Below, piece after piece: positions 38,147 to 43,191 of a stretch of 43,191 nucleotides of DNA (position 1 is the first letter of the stretch; each line of letters starts with the position of its first letter). Under the pieces are notes generated by a model. It saw only the letters and a list, made by a program, of their open reading frames with translations, had not been told where the DNA came from and did no database searches. The stretch covers positions 101,868 through 145,058 of the forward strand of contig JAMCSX010000017.1 of assembly GCA_023379055.1 (NCBI GenBank), in the 5' to 3' direction. The DNA comes from Candidatus Marsarchaeota archaeon. GTDB taxonomy: Archaea > Micrarchaeota > Micrarchaeia > Micrarchaeales > CABMGC01. The position numbers and the translations under genes are program-made.

Positions 38147-39319
38147 TCAGTGCGTAACTATTTTTATCACGTCGCCGTCCTTCAGCACGTATTCCTTTTG
38201 AAGCCTCATTTTTGTCTTTGCATCTATTGCGTACTTCATGCCTTTTGCTATGTCTGTATGTATTTTTGCAGCAAGATCGTACGCTGTACTTCCTTTTCTC
38301 ATCAGTATGGCATCCGGAAGTATGTTTCCTGAATGATCCGCATAATGTGATTCATCCTCAACAGGGTATACCACCAGGTTATCCAGAGTTCCAAATACTG
38401 CTTTATCTAAGAGCGCCTGTATTCCTGTTCCTCCGTGATCCTTTATGTAGCCCTGCATGTAACTTAATGCGCTCTTCTGCTCAGAATTCGCCTCCTTTAC
38501 TATATTGAAGCTATTCATACCGCTTACATAGTCTATTATTCCCTTGTTTGCTGCCTTCACAAGTGCAAGCTCTATTGCACCGGAGCAAGGTATCACTTCG
38601 ACTCCGTCAAGTTTCTTTCTAAGTCCTTCGAGATCCTCCTCCCTTCCCCTATCCATTTTGTTTGCAGCAATTATCAGCGGTTTGTTCTCCTTCAAAAGTG
38701 ATTTTGCAAATGCGCGAGCCTTATCCGGCTTCCAACTTATTCCAGAAAGCGGAAGGGAGTTAGCCGAAGCAGCTCTCCTTATCTGATTGATGTCAGACTT
38801 TAATCCGGACAGGATCTCAAGAAGTGCAACATCGCCATCACTTCTATTAGATAGGCTGGATATGTGGCTGGTTATTATTCCTCCAAGCCATGCAGCCATC
38901 TCATTCCTTATCATCTCGATTTCAACTGCGGGATCACTGCCCTCGCAGCCGGCTCCATTCATGTCCGTCTTTCCGCTTATGTCCACAACCTGTATGATTA
39001 CCTCTGCATTTATCAGATCGTTGAGGAACTGGTTGCCCATCCCCTTACCAAGGTGCGCTCCGGGAACTAGTCCTGCAACATCTATTATGTTTATGGGAAT
39101 CTGCCTGAATCCGTTCTTGCATACCGAGTTTCTAGGTTTGCACTTTATCCCAAGATCTATCTCTGCGCATCTTCTGCTTGCATATGCAACCCCAAGATTC
39201 GGCTTTATCGTTGTAAAAGCATAGTCCGAGATCTGCACTTCGTTAGCAGTCATAGCTGAGAATATGGTGCTTTTTCCCTTGTTAGGCGCGCCTACTAGTC
39301 CTATGAGCAACAAAATCAC
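38147..39319 (-). CDS. OBG-HflX-like GTPase of the YchF/Ygr210 type with C-terminal TGS domain
   Basis: G1 is GLVGAPNKGKST, G3 is DVAGLV and G4 is ANKMD. The C-terminal beta-grasp reads LKDGDVIKIVTH. Confidence 0.8.
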   Translation of the reverse strand: MILLLIGLVGAPNKGKSTIFSAMTANEVQISDYAFTTIKPNLGVAYASRRCAEIDLGIKCKPRNSVCKNGFRQIPINIIDVAGLVPGAHLGKGMGNQFLNDLINAEVIIQVVDISGKTDMNGAGCEGSDPAVEIEMIRNEMAAWLGGIITSHISSLSNRSDGDVALLEILSGLKSDINQIRRAASANSLPLSGISWKPDKARAFAKSLLKENKPLIIAANKMDRGREEDLEGLRKKLDGVEVIPCSGAIELALVKAANKGIIDYVSGMNSFNIVKEANSEQKSALSYMQGYIKDHGGTGIQALLDKAVFGTLDNLVVYPVEDESHYADHSGNILPDAILMRKGSTAYDLAAKIHTDIAKGMKYAIDAKTKMRLQKEYVLKDGDVIKIVTH

Positions 39320-39378
39320 GCATATGTAGATTGGAAAGCAGAGTTATAAAGATTATTTGTAAGTAATAGCCTTATAAT

Positions 39379-39465
39379 GCAGGGATGGCGGAGCATGGTC
39401 AAACGCGACGGGTTCAGGGCCCGCTTCCTTTAGTGGATGCGAGAGTTCAAATCTCTCTCCCTGCA
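39379..39465 (+). tRNA. tRNA-Leu (anticodon CAG), class II with long variable arm; integration target
   Basis: Acceptor GCAGGGA/TCCCTGC, anticodon loop TTCAGGG (CAG, G37) and a variable stem-loop TCC-TTTAGT-GGA. The T arm is GAGAG-TTCAAAT-CTCTC and the discriminator is A. There is one A-C mismatch at the top of the anticodon stem. A TTATAAAG box lies about 32 nt upstream. Confidence 0.85.
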
Positions 39466-39468
39466 AAT
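39427..39468 (+). repeat. attL: 42-bp direct repeat (3' part of tRNA-Leu plus 3 nt)
   Basis: CCTTTAGTGGATGCGAGAGTTCAAATCTCTCTCCCTGCAAAT is identical to 43137..43178. Confidence 0.9.
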
Positions 39469-40276
39469 CCAATTTACGGCGACAAGCTAGGGTTCGGAAA
39501 TCCGAAAGGTAAATCTTCAAAGACCGAAGATTTCGAGGATTTCTCCGAAACCCTCAAGCAGGTGTCCATGAACAGATCATGGCACCAATTACAAAAGCTA
39601 CAATCAGTTTTACATAAAACTCAGACCAAGAGGTTTGCAGGTAAGAGGAAGACGCCGAAATATGGCTCAATCTCAAAGGCGTTTTCCGATTCGCAGCTTC
39701 AGAGATTCCTTCACGTAATAGACTCTGACAAGTTTCGCTTGCTATTCAGCTACCAAGCGCAGCTTGGGCTTAGAATAGGAGAAGCGGTCAGAGTCAATAT
39801 CAACTCAATAGACCTAGAAACGAGGGAACTTACCTTGAAGACCGAGAAGGCTCGGGTAATGGACTCGTTATTGATACCAATGCCGCTGTTCAAGGATACC
39901 ATAATCTTCATCTCGAAGCACAAGTCCAAGATCGAGAATGCGCAGGGGTATCTGTTCTATGCAGACAAGCTACGAACCAAGCGGCCTGAGCCGTTCCTAG
40001 AGCAAAACTACGTGCGCAACAGGTTCAGGCACTATGTGCGACTGGCGGGGTTGGACGAGGTATACGATACCTCAGACGAAACCAACCCTAACAGGAGCGT
40101 AAGGCAGGCACCTTCATAGGCTCACTACCCACAGCCTACGGCACTATGCCATAACCAGCTTCGCCAGGCAGACAAATGGCAATTTGGTGCTAACAAGCCG
40201 GTTCGCTAGGCATAGCGACCCTAGCACCACGATGATCTACATAAGCACTAGGAAAGAGGAGCTTTACAAGGGATAG
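39427..40276 (+). pseudogene. int: Tyrosine recombinase (integrase), Int(C) portion reading out of attL; also frameshifted near 40103-40116
   Basis: Frame 1 (to the TAG at 40117-40119) carries the first catalytic Arg region QLGLRIGEAVRV. The +2 frame from 40103 to 40276 reads RHLHRLTTHSLRHYAITSFARQTNGNLVLTSRFARHSDPSTTMIYISTRKEELYKG (HxLRH box, second His, catalytic Tyr). Confidence 0.8.
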
Positions 40277-40341
40277 ACAACGCCTTTGGCCTATCTCAAG
40301 CCCTAAGCCTGAAAGCTCGACTTTCCGGCACCTAAGCAAGC

Positions 40342-40491
40342 TTTCTCTACATGACTTGGGTTTCTCTACATGCCCAAGCCATTCCATGTAGAGAAAACCT
40401 CCCTCGTAAGCCCTCAAAATAGGGCTATTTTCTCTCTACATGACTGCACATCAATATTAGAGCCGTCCATGTAGAGTTTCATGTAGAGAAA
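40342..40491. repeat. Iteron-like cluster: six copies of (TTT)CTCTACATG in both orientations
   Basis: Forward copies lie at 40342-40353, 40361-40372 and 40428-40442 (the last is a variant, TTTTCTCTCTACATG). Reverse copies (CATGTAGAG(AAA)) lie at 40385-40396, 40468-40476 and 40480-40491. Confidence 0.8.
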
Positions 40492-40499
40492 CTCCCGCC

Positions 40500-40755
40500 T
40501 TGCAGCCTCCGCCCGCCTTTAAGACACCTTCGGTGTCGCACGGTGGGCTACGGCTGCTGCGGCTACTTTGTAGTACATGGCGGCGTTAAGGCTGATTTTG
40601 ACCCCCACGCAAAATCAGCCGCTTGCTAGGTGGCTAGCTTGCAGACCGTTGGGTCGTTAGCCCACGTGAGGAGCGTAGCTCTGAACGTGCTGGCGTAGCT
40701 AAAGGGTATGGGGTTTCCTTGAAGAAAAAGTCAGATGCTTAATACAGGAAGTCCA
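40500..40755. other. GC-rich non-coding block with stable hairpins (candidate ncRNA or origin-associated structure)
   Basis: No ORF is listed between 40418 and 40755. One sampled line (40501-40560) is about 67% GC. Hairpin 1 is GACACC-TTCG-GGTGTC (40523-40537). Hairpin 2 is GGCTGATTTTG-ACCCCCACG-CAAAATCAGCC (40590-40620). Confidence 0.5.
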
Positions 40756-41568
40756 TCACTTTACCGACTTCTTAGTAAGCGCTATGTAGTTTATTTTGCC
40801 CCATTCAAAATAGTAGTCTTTGCCCGATTCTCCATCTGAAATGCGAAGAGACTTACCTATAGAAGAGAGATAACCCTCTTTATCATCGACTTCGACAAGA
40901 ATCTTATTTTGTTTTTTAGATGCGAAGAGATCAAATATCTTATCCTGTATAGCCAGTTTGTCCGGAAGTATTCCCCTATAAATAATAACCTGTAGGAAAA
41001 TTAGATAAAAAGCTGAGACTACAGTACCAAGTATATCTTTAACTGCTTGAGGCGTCAGGTTGGCAAGCCCATTCGACAATAGTGCTATACCTGCACCTTG
41101 CATGTCTCCGAAATAAAGGAACATTAGAAAGCAGATGTAGAATATTGCTAATAGTAAGTTGTAGCTTTCCCTGAACCTGTACACAATAGTTTTTTCACTT
41201 TTTAGACTTTCGACCTTCATGTCCATTAATTTTGCTTCGATTAAAAGTACAAATAGCGAGCCGAATGTAGCCAAGAGTAAATAGTTATAGTCGCTGCTCT
41301 GAAAGAACTGTAACAGAATTAAAGCCAAAACTATGTAAATTCCTGCATTTACTAAGAACGGAATGTTCTCACTAGTGTAAATCTTATTGAATCTTTCGAA
41401 CTTTGATAGAAGAGTATCAAATTGTTTTGATGACTTTCTGATGGTATCAAGAGTTGCTTTACGCTGCCTTCCTTTTAAGAAGTAAACAAAATAAAAACTT
41501 AGAAGCGTAGCAACTAGCGGTATTCCAAAAATGCCTACCAATTCTAATACGGTTATCAAATCAACCAT
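40756..41568 (-). CDS. Element cargo: 5-TM membrane protein with about 70-aa soluble C-terminal domain
   Basis: Five hydrophobic helices, then KILVEVDDKEGYLSSIGKSLRISDGESGKDYYFEWGKINYIAL. It is AT-rich. The start is taken at ATG 41568 (MVDLITV...). The ORF opens at 41634. Confidence 0.6.
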   Translation of the reverse strand: MVDLITVLELVGIFGIPLVATLLSFYFVYFLKGRQRKATLDTIRKSSKQFDTLLSKFERFNKIYTSENIPFLVNAGIYIVLALILLQFFQSSDYNYLLLATFGSLFVLLIEAKLMDMKVESLKSEKTIVYRFRESYNLLLAIFYICFLMFLYFGDMQGAGIALLSNGLANLTPQAVKDILGTVVSAFYLIFLQVIIYRGILPDKLAIQDKIFDLFASKKQNKILVEVDDKEGYLSSIGKSLRISDGESGKDYYFEWGKINYIALTKKSVK

Positions 41569-41682
41569 GTGTATAATATCCACGTAAAAGTATATAACAT
41601 TTTTGAGGAGATGGAACACAGAGTTTAACAACAATCAAACTGAGCGCCAAAAGTTAAATATTAGTTTATTGTAGAATAAATC

Positions 41683-42969
41683 ATGTCAAATAATATCTTT
41701 GATTTTGCACCGCATGAATTAAATCACTCTGCTTTCTGGGCTTGGATATTAGCTAGTTTAAGCAAAGACAATCACAAGAATAAACAAAATGAAATAGGAA
41801 GAAGGATTGCAAGTAAGTTCTTAAAGAAAGTTGGGATTGACAAATCTGCAATAAAAAATATTAGTGTCGAACACCAAGCCTCCCCACTAACAAGTAAAAA
41901 CAGCGAAGGATCAACGTATGACATAAAAGCTGTGATTGAAGTAAAAAATGGTAAAAGTGTGTTTCTTGTTATAGAAACAAAAGTAAAAGCAAAAGCGGGG
42001 AGTGGGCAGCTAGAAAAGTACATCGGATATATCCAAAGAGAGTGTAAGGAAAAGCGACGTAAGGGTTATTTAATCTTACTAGATATTCAAGGCAAATCTC
42101 CACTTAAAGATAAAGAAAAAGAGGTACTCTATAAAGAAGCGAACAAGAAAGGAGTTGAATTCAAGATTTTTACTCCTGCTGACGTAATAGAAATCATAAA
42201 AGGGAATAAAAAAATTGATACGAAATATGATGGTTACCTTGTAAACAATTATATTGAATGGATTGAAGGTAACAAGGACTTTTGGGAGTATATATGCAAA
42301 GGCATAGTTTATGGAATTAGTGAAAAAGGAAATAAAAACATAAATGTAATTCGACCAAAGCGACACAAAGGGTGGGGATGGAAAGTAGAATCAAAAAAAG
42401 TTGGGATTGGAGAAGTTGGACTTATTTTTAAAGAGAATTCAAAGAAAGTGAAGATTGAATGTTGGTTTGGAGATGATTATACCCAGATAGAAGAGGTTTT
42501 CGAAAATCGGGAAACTATAAGAAGAAATCTTAAAAAATTAGAAGATAAAGGATGGAAAATCAAACCAAATCTATATTTCTGCACCTCTATAAATAAAAGA
42601 CATTATCCAGAGCAAATAGATTCGAATAATTGGGAAATGTATTTTGATATTTTATATGATTCAAAGGATGTTAAAAAAATAAAGTATTCTGCTGATGAAA
42701 TGGAAAAGAAGTTTCTGGAACTGGTAAGACGTGGTGCAATCAAAAATGTAGATGCTGAGGATGACACAAAGAGAAATGGCACTAGAAGTATACTAAAAGG
42801 CGATATTAAAAAAATTAGAAAACACCGAGCTACGCTGAAGCGAGGTATTGGAGCCATCTATGGCTATAAGACCCGTGATTTGTTAAACCCCAAAGAATTA
42901 AAGAAACTAAATTCAACGATAGCTAATAAAATCAATGAAGCTTTGGGCGACTTGCCAGATAAAAGCTAA
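41683..42969 (+). CDS. Element cargo: PD-(D/E)xK (RecB/Cas4-like) nuclease-domain protein with Lys-rich C-terminal extension
   Basis: STYDIKAVIEV...FLVIETKVKAKAGSGQLEKY gives D, E-x-K and QxxxY motifs in the canonical order. The protein is 428 aa and about 30-35% GC on sampled lines. Confidence 0.55.
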   Translation: MSNNIFDFAPHELNHSAFWAWILASLSKDNHKNKQNEIGRRIASKFLKKVGIDKSAIKNISVEHQASPLTSKNSEGSTYDIKAVIEVKNGKSVFLVIETKVKAKAGSGQLEKYIGYIQRECKEKRRKGYLILLDIQGKSPLKDKEKEVLYKEANKKGVEFKIFTPADVIEIIKGNKKIDTKYDGYLVNNYIEWIEGNKDFWEYICKGIVYGISEKGNKNINVIRPKRHKGWGWKVESKKVGIGEVGLIFKENSKKVKIECWFGDDYTQIEEVFENRETIRRNLKKLEDKGWKIKPNLYFCTSINKRHYPEQIDSNNWEMYFDILYDSKDVKKIKYSADEMEKKFLELVRRGAIKNVDAEDDTKRNGTRSILKGDIKKIRKHRATLKRGIGAIYGYKTRDLLNPKELKKLNSTIANKINEALGDLPDKS

Positions 42970-42975
42970 TTTAGG

Positions 42976-43000
42976 GTTCAGATTTAATGGAAATCTGAAC
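42976..43000 (+). terminator. Perfect 10-bp inverted repeat GTTCAGATTT-AATGG-AAATCTGAAC just after the nuclease-gene stop
   Basis: It was seen directly. A third half-site, GGTTCAGATT, lies at 43039-43048. It could act as a hairpin terminator or as an operator upstream of the Int(N) start. Confidence 0.4.
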
Positions 43001-43091
43001 GCTAGCTGCTTAAATAGATTGCTTGGCCATAATTTATGGTTCAGATTAACCTGCTTGGGCTTAGAATTTTATGTTGTTTTTGGTGTGAAAT

Positions 43092-43178
43092 ATGGTTAGG
43101 AATATAGGCGTGAAACAGCTAGGAAACACTCTCAAACCTTTAGTGGATGCGAGAGTTCAAATCTCTCTCCCTGCAAAT
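43092..43178 (+). CDS. Putative Int(N) fragment: ATG plus 15 codons reading in frame into attR
   Basis: ATG 43092 is preceded by an in-frame TGA at 43086. It reads MVRNIGVKQLGNTLK then PLVDARVQISLPAN, the same frame in which attL reads into the integrase body. Confidence 0.45.
43137..43178 (+). repeat. attR: second copy of the 42-bp repeat
   Basis: It is identical to 39427..39468. The sequence upstream (43100-43136) has no tRNA 5' half, so this is a duplicated tRNA 3' end and not a second gene. Confidence 0.9.
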
Positions 43179-43191
43179 TTAACAGAAGATA

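Follow-up and report, generated by a model that had tools for sequence, protein, structure and literature searches.

The smallest of the cryptic integrated elements (CIE) of Thaumarchaeota has a size of only 2.6 kb (Krupovic et al., 2019, PMC6563490). CIE are small archaeal elements with a tyrosine integrase, attachment site (att) repeats and few cargo genes, and without recognisable replication or virion genes. These traits are shared by the element that is the subject of this study, a 3.7-kb segment in a stretch of 43,191 nt from contig JAMCSX010000017.1 of the Micrarchaeota assembly GCA_023379055.1. The whole stretch is called the window below, and all positions refer to it. The segment very probably arose when a small element with site-specific integration entered the chromosome of a Micrarchaeota (DPANN) archaeon, and it belongs to a family with members in other Micrarchaeota. 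The family differs from the CIE by its hosts, which are Micrarchaeota and thus DPANN archaea, by a XerA-like integrase gene that lies immediately downstream of the tRNA gene and in the same orientation, and by the 42-bp att site of the window. In addition, it has kept a module of repeats plus a structured RNA as well as a palindromic right end across integrase subfamilies, and the CIE descriptions at hand contain neither of them.

The tycheposons of Prochlorococcus, as described in the abstract of Hackl et al. (bioRxiv 10.1101/2020.12.28.424599), are likewise cargo elements, and a handful of tRNA genes serve them as sites of excision and integration. In a streamlined genome without conventional transfer systems they form variable islands, and some of them resemble phage parasites. 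The tandem arrays and the cargo swapping of the Micrarchaeota family match this behaviour. However, tycheposons are bacterial, a kinship of the recombinases is not shown, and the abstract is without a structured RNA or repeat module; the comparison is a functional one only. In elements of the Sulfolobus spindle-shaped virus (SSV) type, including pSSVi (PMC8371274), the att site also overlaps the 5′-end of the integrase gene, and a short upstream piece is split off by integration. These elements are also small, have tRNA genes as targets, and their integrated copies may need an integrase in trans. In contrast to them, the window integrase is devoid of the PF16795 domain and resembles XerA and IntI, and the part split off would be no more than a tail that is disordered and under weak constraint. 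Among solved structures, the archaeal XerA chromosome-dimer resolvase (PDB 4a8e, 5hxy) is closest to the integrase in both sequence profile and fold, but the window integrase scores far under the XerA equivalog cut-off, is borne by an element, adjoins an att site and a tRNA gene, and has a shorter N-terminal domain.

Taken together, the element is of a known kind, a small archaeal tRNA-integrating element, which differs from the described ones in host phylum, in a Xer-like reading frame that runs through att, and in a conserved non-coding backbone. The copy in the window is decayed and ordinary in its mechanism, and the interesting part is the family with its RNA module. Literature searches yielded no description of integrative elements in Micrarchaeota. 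The family is widespread and apparently undescribed, and its RNA appears to be the novel part.

The integrated element and its family

An earlier note, made from the sequence alone, had proposed that an element is integrated in tRNA-Leu(CAG) between perfect 42-bp att repeats, that the first repeat covers the tRNA gene from the variable arm to the discriminator plus 3 nt, and that the second repeat lacks a preceding tRNA 5′ half. All of these claims were verified. The 42-mer CCTTTAGTGGATGCGAGAGTTCAAATCTCTCTCCCTGCAAAT has exactly two copies in the window, attL at 39427-39468 and attR at 43137-43178, both on the plus strand. The two copies are identical at 42/42 positions, and the identity stops at 42 bp, with no extension on either side. 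In 100 dinucleotide shuffles no chance match was obtained, even when 3 mismatches were permitted. ARAGORN made a single prediction, an intact tRNA-Leu(CAG) at 39378-39466 on the plus strand, and none at the second repeat, while the Rfam tRNA model matched 39379-39465 with 47.3 bits. The 3′ part of this tRNA gene is attL, and the repeat spans the variable arm up to the discriminator (39465) plus 3 nt. The DNA in front of the second repeat is instead the conserved right end of the element. A genuine second tRNA-Leu gene, which had been named as an observation that would speak against the proposal, is thus not present at attR, as the tRNA 5′ half is missing. Two characteristics of site-specific integrative elements in tRNA genes were found, namely direct repeats of which one is the 3′ part of the tRNA gene, and a tyrosine recombinase gene that adjoins one of the att sites.

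The gene next to the tRNA gene (38147-39319, minus strand) encodes a GTPase that is YchF/Obg-like according to Pfam. Because its best relatives were all found in metagenome-assembled genomes of Micrarchaeota, with identities of at most 65%, the host is assigned to this phylum. The tRNA-Leu gene was located beside the same GTPase gene, or one gene off, in dozens of Micrarchaeota loci, and this recurring synteny indicates that the tRNA gene is native to the host. Most of the GTPase-tRNA-Leu loci of these relatives were without a nearby integrase gene. At the same place, five loci contained integrase fragments or whole related elements (L031, L009, L021, L047, and L053; L numbers designate the loci that were used for comparison). 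The relatives thus do not have identical content without repeats, a second observation that had been named as contrary to the proposal; loci without an integrase, differing cargo and tandem arrays occur at the same site.

The family consists of elements of 3-7 kb (measured sizes 3.2-6.8 kb) beside tRNA-Leu, tRNA-Glu and tRNA-Val genes in Micrarchaeota. Their common layout comprises the tRNA gene with attL, the XerA-like integrase gene, six 10-bp repeats, a structured RNA of about 230 nt, swappable cargo, a palindromic right end, and attR. The backbone of the window element, i.e., integrase, repeats, RNA and right end, is 75-94% identical to elements of other Micrarchaeota, while the AT-rich cargo varies between elements. 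This arrangement of parts was found at tRNA-Leu(CAG/TAG/TAA), tRNA-Glu(TTC/CTC) and tRNA-Val(CAC), with mostly degenerate att copies. At tRNA-Leu(CAG) the window element is accompanied by L031 and L093. Residents of tRNA-Leu(TAG) are element A of L082 with a repeat spacing of 3,898 nt, L092 (3,184 nt) with PIN-RHH and AbiEi/AbiEii genes as cargo, and L094-L098 with DUF2283 and zf-AN1 genes. An integrase-less element with a repeat spacing of 4,579 nt lies at tRNA-Leu(UAA) in L099, and it has the nuclease gene and the right end in common with the window (75% identity). The elements at tRNA-Glu(CTC) and tRNA-Glu(TTC) are L049 and L105, respectively, of which L105 has a size of 6.8 kb. L108 and L109 at tRNA-Val(CAC) represent one locus with the same integrase and RNA and with wholly different cargo. 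The att pair of the window is perfect, in contrast to identities of 74-88% in related elements where this was measured, and of 90% (3 mismatches in 40 nt) in L105. Therefore, the insertion in the window seems to be comparatively recent.

Several loci of the family showed peculiarities of their own. At tRNA-Leu(TAG), L082:6100-13267 (also L083-L090) is a tandem array in which element A is joined via an att copy to element B. Element A contains an integrase gene, three genes of unknown function and a HxlR gene, the integrase gene of element B is frameshifted (213 + 109 aa), and the array is followed by a DUF2283 gene and an IS605-type TnpB gene. The tRNA-Leu site acts here like a hot spot for insertions. 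L099:10-118 is a tRNA-Leu(UAA)-like gene with about 20 inserted nt in its D-loop region, possibly a non-canonical intron, which was not called by ARAGORN; it is the attL of the integrase-less 4.6-kb element, which carries two transposase genes and the nuclease copy. A block of genes from a geranylgeranyl reductase to an M50 peptidase was found within 5-9 kb of the att/tRNA-Leu site in L081 (5779-9379), L013 (1-2946) and L042 (2-2097). It is inverted in L081 relative to the other two loci, and an inversion between inversely oriented elements could be the origin. Such inversions have been described for Thermococcales. The genes downstream in L081 had been considered as a source of synteny for the tRNA-Leu flank, but owing to the inverted order they were uninformative.

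The repeat and RNA module

An iteron-like cluster and a GC-rich structured block between the repeats had also been noticed earlier, and closer analysis bore out both. The cluster (40344-40489, without an assigned strand) consists of six copies of the 10-bp sequence TCTCTACATG within 146 bp. Three copies are on the plus strand (40344, 40363, 40433) and three on the minus strand (40385, 40468, 40480), and no second cluster exists anywhere in the window. The six repeats surround an invariant AT-rich 25-mer that contains the sequence AATATTA (40453-40459), and the last two copies fall between this AT box and position 40485, the first nucleotide of the structured block. Order and spacing of the repeats are identical in L081, L094, L105, L108, and L109. 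In 1.6 Mb of fetched archaeal loci, repeat clusters occurred only alongside the RNA module. The idea that the repeats are integrase-specific sites that co-vary with the enzyme was rejected. It holds true for L049 alone, whereas L105, L108, and L109 keep the repeats together with integrases that are only about 55% identical. In the tRNA-Glu(CTC) element L049 (19820-19985), two copies of GGTGGAGTAAAAC and the related CACGTGGAGTAAG take the place of TCTCTACATG, and a diverged RNA copy follows downstream.

The structured block has a length of about 230 nt (40485-40717, plus strand). It was predicted to form eight helices with UUCG/UACG and GNRA-type loops, and its minimum free energy was −106 kcal/mol on the plus strand (z = −4.85), compared with −90.8 kcal/mol on the minus strand (z = −2.9). 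A covariance model was built from seven copies of the module. It gave 274 bits for the block in the window and detected further copies, including those of L105, L108, and L109, and the diverged copy in L049 reached 69.7 bits. In an alignment of 12 homologues that was fitted to the model, 17 of the 53 base pairs changed on both sides, and 94.1% of the cells were paired. None of 500 shuffles was as high, and slid controls yielded 0-2 such pairs. A separate run of RNAalifold on the same 12-sequence alignment classified 13 of 40 pairs as compensatory, and an alignment of five sequences that was made with MAFFT only had changes on both sides in 9 of 53 pairs. A search of 39000-43191 against Rfam (E ≤ 1) retrieved nothing that overlaps the block, just the tRNA and weak matches elsewhere. 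The nucleotide identity of the RNA module is about 85-90% in elements with integrases of only about 55% identity, and across the family the module is better conserved than the integrase.

Conservation of the module irrespective of the integrase, together with the lack of any conserved protein besides the integrase in the family, suggests that the module is bound by a host factor. The positions of the repeats fit operators over a promoter. The repeat array around the TATA-like box might thus be a repressible promoter that drives a non-coding RNA (ncRNA) of about 230 nt, and the ncRNA may act in cis or in trans for episomal maintenance or replication control via host proteins. A cis-acting maintenance or replication-control RNA is the favoured interpretation, albeit a tentative one, and the part in replication is pure inference. 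It is also possible, at a similarly low level of confidence, that the repeats and the RNA together are an element-borne ncRNA system that defines DPANN elements without replication protein (Rep), which would enable episomal persistence or replication with host proteins only, or would regulate excision, with a hairpin loop as a switch. A few observations do not favour a role of this kind. The module is wholly absent from the otherwise complete element L092, and since this element is without it, the module is not needed for integration; in L091 it is half-deleted. The evidence for the promoter is a single AT box, no oligo-T terminator follows the block, and the RNA is a predicted one only.

A known case with a superficially similar arrangement is the ColE1 type of plasmid, in which replication is primed by an RNA and does not require a replication protein. 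With regard to the RNA module only, both are small elements with a promoter that drives a highly structured ncRNA in the maintenance region. In contrast, there is no similarity in sequence or structure, priming is without support, and the host is archaeal; the comparison is a lead rather than a finding.

Alternatively, the module could work at the level of DNA, as a replication origin with initiator boxes, an AT-rich unwinding site and hairpins as single-strand initiation signals that are used by host initiators, and no functional RNA would exist. Such an origin would account for the inverted repeats that flank the invariant AT-rich 25-mer, and the strong conservation regardless of the integrase subfamily suggests a partner among the host proteins. 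It would also agree with the two reverse-complement versions of the hairpin 5 loop among close copies, which are the result of a DNA-level event. However, G-U wobble pairs and the difference in folding energy favour one strand as RNA, UUCG and GNRA-type loops are typical of RNA, and no such cluster was found in 1.1 Mb of Micrarchaeota chromosomal loci, among which no chromosomal origin was knowingly sampled. A DNA origin is thus regarded as unlikely.

Neither is it probable that the element is a satellite, the module of which mimics the origin or the packaging signal of a helper, either a virus or a plasmid of Micrarchaeota that provides for replication and transfer, while the integrase merely parks the element in the chromosome. 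The satellite pSSVi has replication-related genes of its own, and fuselloviruses package it. With 3-7 kb, the family members have a size comparable to pSSVi and pSSVx, they are devoid of replication, capsid and transfer genes, and their non-coding module shows stronger conservation than the integrase, all of which would suit a satellite. pSSVi and pSSVx were stated to be the only two satellites previously described in Archaea (preprint 10.1101/2025.02.15.638363). On the other hand, no virus or plasmid contig in IMG/VR had the same repeats or RNA, the repeat clusters occurred only inside these elements among the archaeal loci examined, and L092 has an intact-looking integrase in spite of the missing module. 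A helper virus with the same repeats was also sought directly and was discarded, because the IMG/VR scans led only to L102-L104, which are without integrase and have apparent chance matches to the repeats. The earlier note had left open whether the element is a minimal integrative plasmid or a satellite. Both are compatible with the data, as no replication or packaging gene was present in any family member examined.

The maintenance or replication-control RNA remains the favoured interpretation of the module. Three further observations concern variation of the module. The loop of hairpin 5, which is enclosed by the 11-bp inverted arms GGCTGATTTTG/CAAAATCAGCC, is either the C-rich GACCCCCTGC or its exact reverse complement GCAGGGGGTC. 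The two states differ between near-identical copies from the same study (L094:6501-6530 versus L097:9468-9497; also L105 and L108), and the G-rich state recurs in other subfamilies. A switch or a polymorphism caused by a small inversion of DNA could underlie the two states. L109 contains two repeat-plus-RNA modules on one contig (7098-7357 and 11465-11727), which are 4.4 kb apart, and the second is preceded by an integrase 3′ remnant only. In L081, a GC-rich region upstream of the right end (340-460) contains rearranged pieces of the RNA, AAGGCTGATTCTGCCCC and, in the opposite sense, ACGACCCAACG, and is apparently the remnant of a scrambled module.

The integrase and its attachment site

The tyrosine recombinase that the earlier note had placed between the repeats was recovered by Pfam as Phage_integrase (PF00589, E = 5e-12), with a match that begins about 100 nt past attL. 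The claim was correct with regard to the protein family, but the gene is not intact. Three-frame translation of 39568-40335 (plus strand) and alignment with L053, L049, and L045 revealed a tandem duplication of 4 nt (AGGC|AGGC, 40102-40109), which leads to a stop at 40117-19, and a deletion of 1 nt near 40271, which leads to a stop at 40274-76 and a truncated C-terminus. The ancestral stop is at 40333-35. The catalytic HxxR, H and Y residues are all encoded downstream of the first frameshift. As judged from the sequence, the integrase gene of this copy is a frameshifted pseudogene. The two frame-breaking indels have the consequence that the copy cannot excise by itself, while a related integrase acting in trans would still be able to use its perfect att sites.

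Intact homologues have 255-327 aa and are up to 94% identical. Altogether 556 homologues were collected, and those with a name are annotated as (site-specific) integrases of Micrarchaeota or Micrarchaeaceae. A PDB search with a profile of 120 family integrases matched XerA alone (E = 3e-7), and the best NCBIfam model was archaeal XerA, with 51 bits in comparison to a cut-off of 220. A Foldseek search with the AlphaFold model of the integrase was led by XerA, IntI, and XerH (XerA, E = 3.5e-8, TM about 0.5), and the SSV1 integrase was absent from the 50 matches listed. The similarity to IntI is generic (TIGR02249, E = 8e-4, far under the cut-off). Only PF00589 was found at E ≤ 0.1, and PF16795 (Phage_integr_3) was not.

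The leader between att and the integrase core (39469-39567, plus strand) is conserved, and 11 homologous leaders could be aligned. It contains the palindrome TTCGGAAATCCGAA (39493-39506), a hairpin with the arms AAATCTTC/GAAGATTT (39511-18 / 39526-33), which shows compensatory changes across the 11 leaders, and a Shine-Dalgarno-like AGGTG (39560-64). At the other end of the element, the conserved right end (42970-43136, plus strand) comprises the 167 nt that precede attR and is 89-92% identical in L031, L081, L082, and L092. It contains the palindrome GTTCAGATTT-N5-AAATCTGAAC (42976-43000), which, written as GTTCAGAT-N9-ATCTGAAC, was found 140-160 nt before the attR-type sequence in several integrase subfamilies (L105, L108, L099, L082, L031, and L091). 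An additional GGTTCAGAT half-site follows at 43038-46, and the right end also has AT boxes and, at 43092, an ATG in the frame of the integrase. By itself GGTTCAGAT is not significantly enriched in the window, and its meaning rests on its positional conservation across elements. An integron-like organisation, with IntI and attC cassettes and with the palindrome as the cassette boundary, was rejected because each element has just one palindrome, which lies at a fixed distance from attR and not between genes, and because the IntI similarity is generic.

The leader probably represents the P′ arm and the right end the P arm of the attachment site of the free element (attP). In the circular form the right end (42976-43136), the 42-bp core and the leader (39469-39567) would be joined to an attP of about 300 bp, which we infer to carry arm-type sites, with GGTTC(A/G)GA half-sites on both arms. 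The XerA-like integrase would have recombined the core, which equals the 3′-end of tRNA-Leu(CAG), with the tRNA gene, and integration would have rebuilt the intact tRNA gene at attL and left a stub of 42 bp at attR. The two indels in the integrase gene would have been gained later, and from then on mobility would have been possible only with an integrase in trans.

The leader is also in frame with the integrase gene, where it seems to encode a weakly constrained N-terminal tail. In the upstream direction the frame stays open across att as far as an ATG within the tRNA gene (39385), and att itself contains an in-frame GTG (39433). A stop precedes the ATG at 43092, from which, in the circular form, the integrase frame would be open through att, and this fused N-terminus (MARNIGVK..GNTLK) was indeed found in the protein clusters P0001 (L081) and P0111 (L082-L090), with the junction of L082 in the middle of the two-element tandem array. 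This raised the question of whether the enzyme is an integrase of the SSV type whose gene became divided into int(N) (43092-43136) and int(C) upon integration, so that the element would be trapped by the split and not by the indels. Apart from the fused proteins, such a split would fit the AlphaFold model, in which a confident helix extends from residue 46, i.e., 17 residues upstream of the internal Met (ATG 39568, preceded by AGGTG), across this Met, and there is no in-frame start codon between att and the helix. Moreover, the last 12 codons before the internal ATG vary mostly at the third position and look coding (codon-position diversity 0.135/0.136/0.344).

The remaining evidence spoke against an SSV-type split. 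The suicidal integrases are a monophyletic group that is defined by PF16795 (Badel et al., 2021, PMC8371274), which is missing here, and the best matches by sequence and by fold are XerA, IntI, and XerH, without the SSV1 integrase. Residues 1-45 are predicted to be disordered, and substitutions in the leader from att to 39568 are near neutral, with a codon-position diversity of 0.175/0.216/0.271 and a ratio of synonymous to nonsynonymous changes of 104:185, in contrast to 0.108/0.029/0.341 and 232:27 in the core past the internal ATG. Frame-breaking indels in the leader or in the upstream piece of 15 codons are tolerated in L093, L047, L021, L092, and L091, and in L093 the core of 255 aa is intact despite such an indel. 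Starts at the GTG within att or at the ATG within the tRNA gene could preserve the folded protein after integration. Membership in the SSV-type family was therefore rejected, and given the missing PF16795, the XerA-like matches and the codon statistics only the architectural resemblance was retained; a split of this kind is quite improbable. In our reading of sequence and structural model, the enzyme would be a classical Xer-like integrase whose N-terminal tail, disordered and under weak constraint, is overlapped by att, and the gene would be type I-like in its architecture only.

Some points weigh against the interpretation of the segment as an integrated element. No relative of the host with an identity above 65% was available for a true empty-site comparison. 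The downstream host flank lies beyond the window, which extends only 13 nt past attR, a stretch too short for an alignment; the parent contig is listed with 145,058 bp, and the nuclease of the window, used as an entry to the sequence past attR, was not on record. A circular or excised form was not detected in module-pattern scans (no hit in either of two scans of viral_contigs and one hit in a scan of metagenome_contigs, the fragment L091), a terminal overlap was absent from the short contigs that were checked, including L092 with about 3.6 kb, and the attP-type junctions of L081 and L082-L090 are explained, or can be explained, by tandem integration. Module-pattern and repeat scans of IMG/VR revealed no relative of the element. 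The indels in the integrase gene could in principle be assembly errors; they are probably real, because the large open reading frames (ORFs) examined in other parts of the window correspond to protein families over their full length. The opposite view, that the segment is not mobile and that attR was left by a duplication of the tRNA-Leu gene, the intervening genes being ordinary chromosomal ones, can make use of the unobserved excised form and empty site, the weak point of the integration model, but it is effectively refuted by the family comparisons, since elements with other cargo, located at different tRNA genes and in different genomes, have the same backbone, the integrase gene directly adjoins attL, the cargo has a composition outside of the host range, and attR has no 5′ tRNA half before it.

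Cargo genes and significance of the family

The cargo sits between the module and the right end and is interchangeable within the family, and in the window it consists of two genes, AT-rich and thus foreign in composition, for a nuclease of the restriction-endonuclease fold and an ORFan membrane protein. The earlier note had estimated the base composition by hand and regarded the element as a patchwork. The values could be reproduced, with GC contents of 66.7% at 40501-40560, 35.0% at 41683-41742, 28.3% at 42301-42360, and 48.2% in argG. Host windows of 800 nt have GC contents of 40.7-50.9%, and with 35.8% and 33.0% both cargo genes are under this range, while the GC-rich block of 233 nt (58.4%) is over every host window of 233 nt (maximum 57.1%). 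Together with a conserved backbone and AT-rich cargo that varies per element, this agrees with a patchwork.

Cargo gene 1 (40756-41568, minus strand, 35.8% GC) was taken from the ORF list and encodes a multi-pass membrane protein of 270 aa. The mechanical ORF of 292 aa extends to a TTG at 41634, and the probable start is the ATG at 41568 (MVDLITVLELV...). The protein had no match in Pfam, NCBIfam, PADLOC or PHROGs, and among 1.84 billion representative proteins only the protein itself was retrieved. Cargo gene 2 (41683-42969, plus strand, 33% GC) encodes a protein of 428 aa that is a member of the PD-(D/E)XK nuclease superfamily (Pfam PDDEXK_4, E = 8e-12, 45.8 bits versus a cut-off of 22.3). 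PADLOC proposed PDC-S26 (E = 4e-9), which is a candidate annotation only, and a defence role is likewise a candidate function. The AlphaFold model has a mean pLDDT of 80, and its best Foldseek match, the restriction endonuclease EcoT38I, is weak (E = 7e-4, TM 0.22-0.26). Just six relatives were found among 5.8 billion proteins, and one of them, with an identity of 65%, is encoded in the integrase-less element L099 at tRNA-Leu(UAA). A conserved pairing of nuclease and membrane protein was considered and rejected, because the neighbouring gene in L099 is unrelated and the membrane protein has no homologue. The divergent cargo genes are separated by a spacer of 114 nt (41569-41682) with 29% GC and several TATA-like boxes.

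No replication, capsid or transfer gene was detected in the element with Pfam, PADLOC, NCBIfam, and PHROGs. Specifically, no Rep-like match was found for the ORFs of the window (Pfam, NCBIfam, PHROGs) or the cargo of six relatives (PHROGs, precomputed Pfam), and no PHROG or Pfam match to capsid or genome-packaging proteins was found in the window or in the cargo of the same number of relatives. Elsewhere in the family, the exchangeable cargo includes toxin-antitoxin pairs, restriction-modification systems and OLD-family nucleases. L105 (7824-12527) encodes an OLD-family nuclease (AAA_15 + TOPRIM) and a type IIG restriction-modification enzyme of 1,027 aa that is similar to MmeI/Eco57I, and L111 (7174-9084) encodes an N6/N4 methyltransferase and an HNH (MTaX1) protein. 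Toxin-antitoxin cargo occurs in L092 and L031 (PIN-RHH, AbiEi/AbiEii, DUF4258-like/DUF2283). The family looks like a shuttle for defence genes.

Little is known about how DPANN archaea, which have tiny genomes and are dependent on other archaea, exchange genes. The locus described here opens onto a family of hundreds of mini-elements, which make tRNA genes exchange points for defence and toxin-antitoxin genes in a tycheposon-like manner. Beyond the integrase, the conserved parts of this family are all non-coding, namely a complex attP, a promoter-like repeat array and an RNA that is supported by covariation. The RNA adds a new family for annotation pipelines, and the module is a testable handle on how an archaeon maintains an element that has no replication protein.

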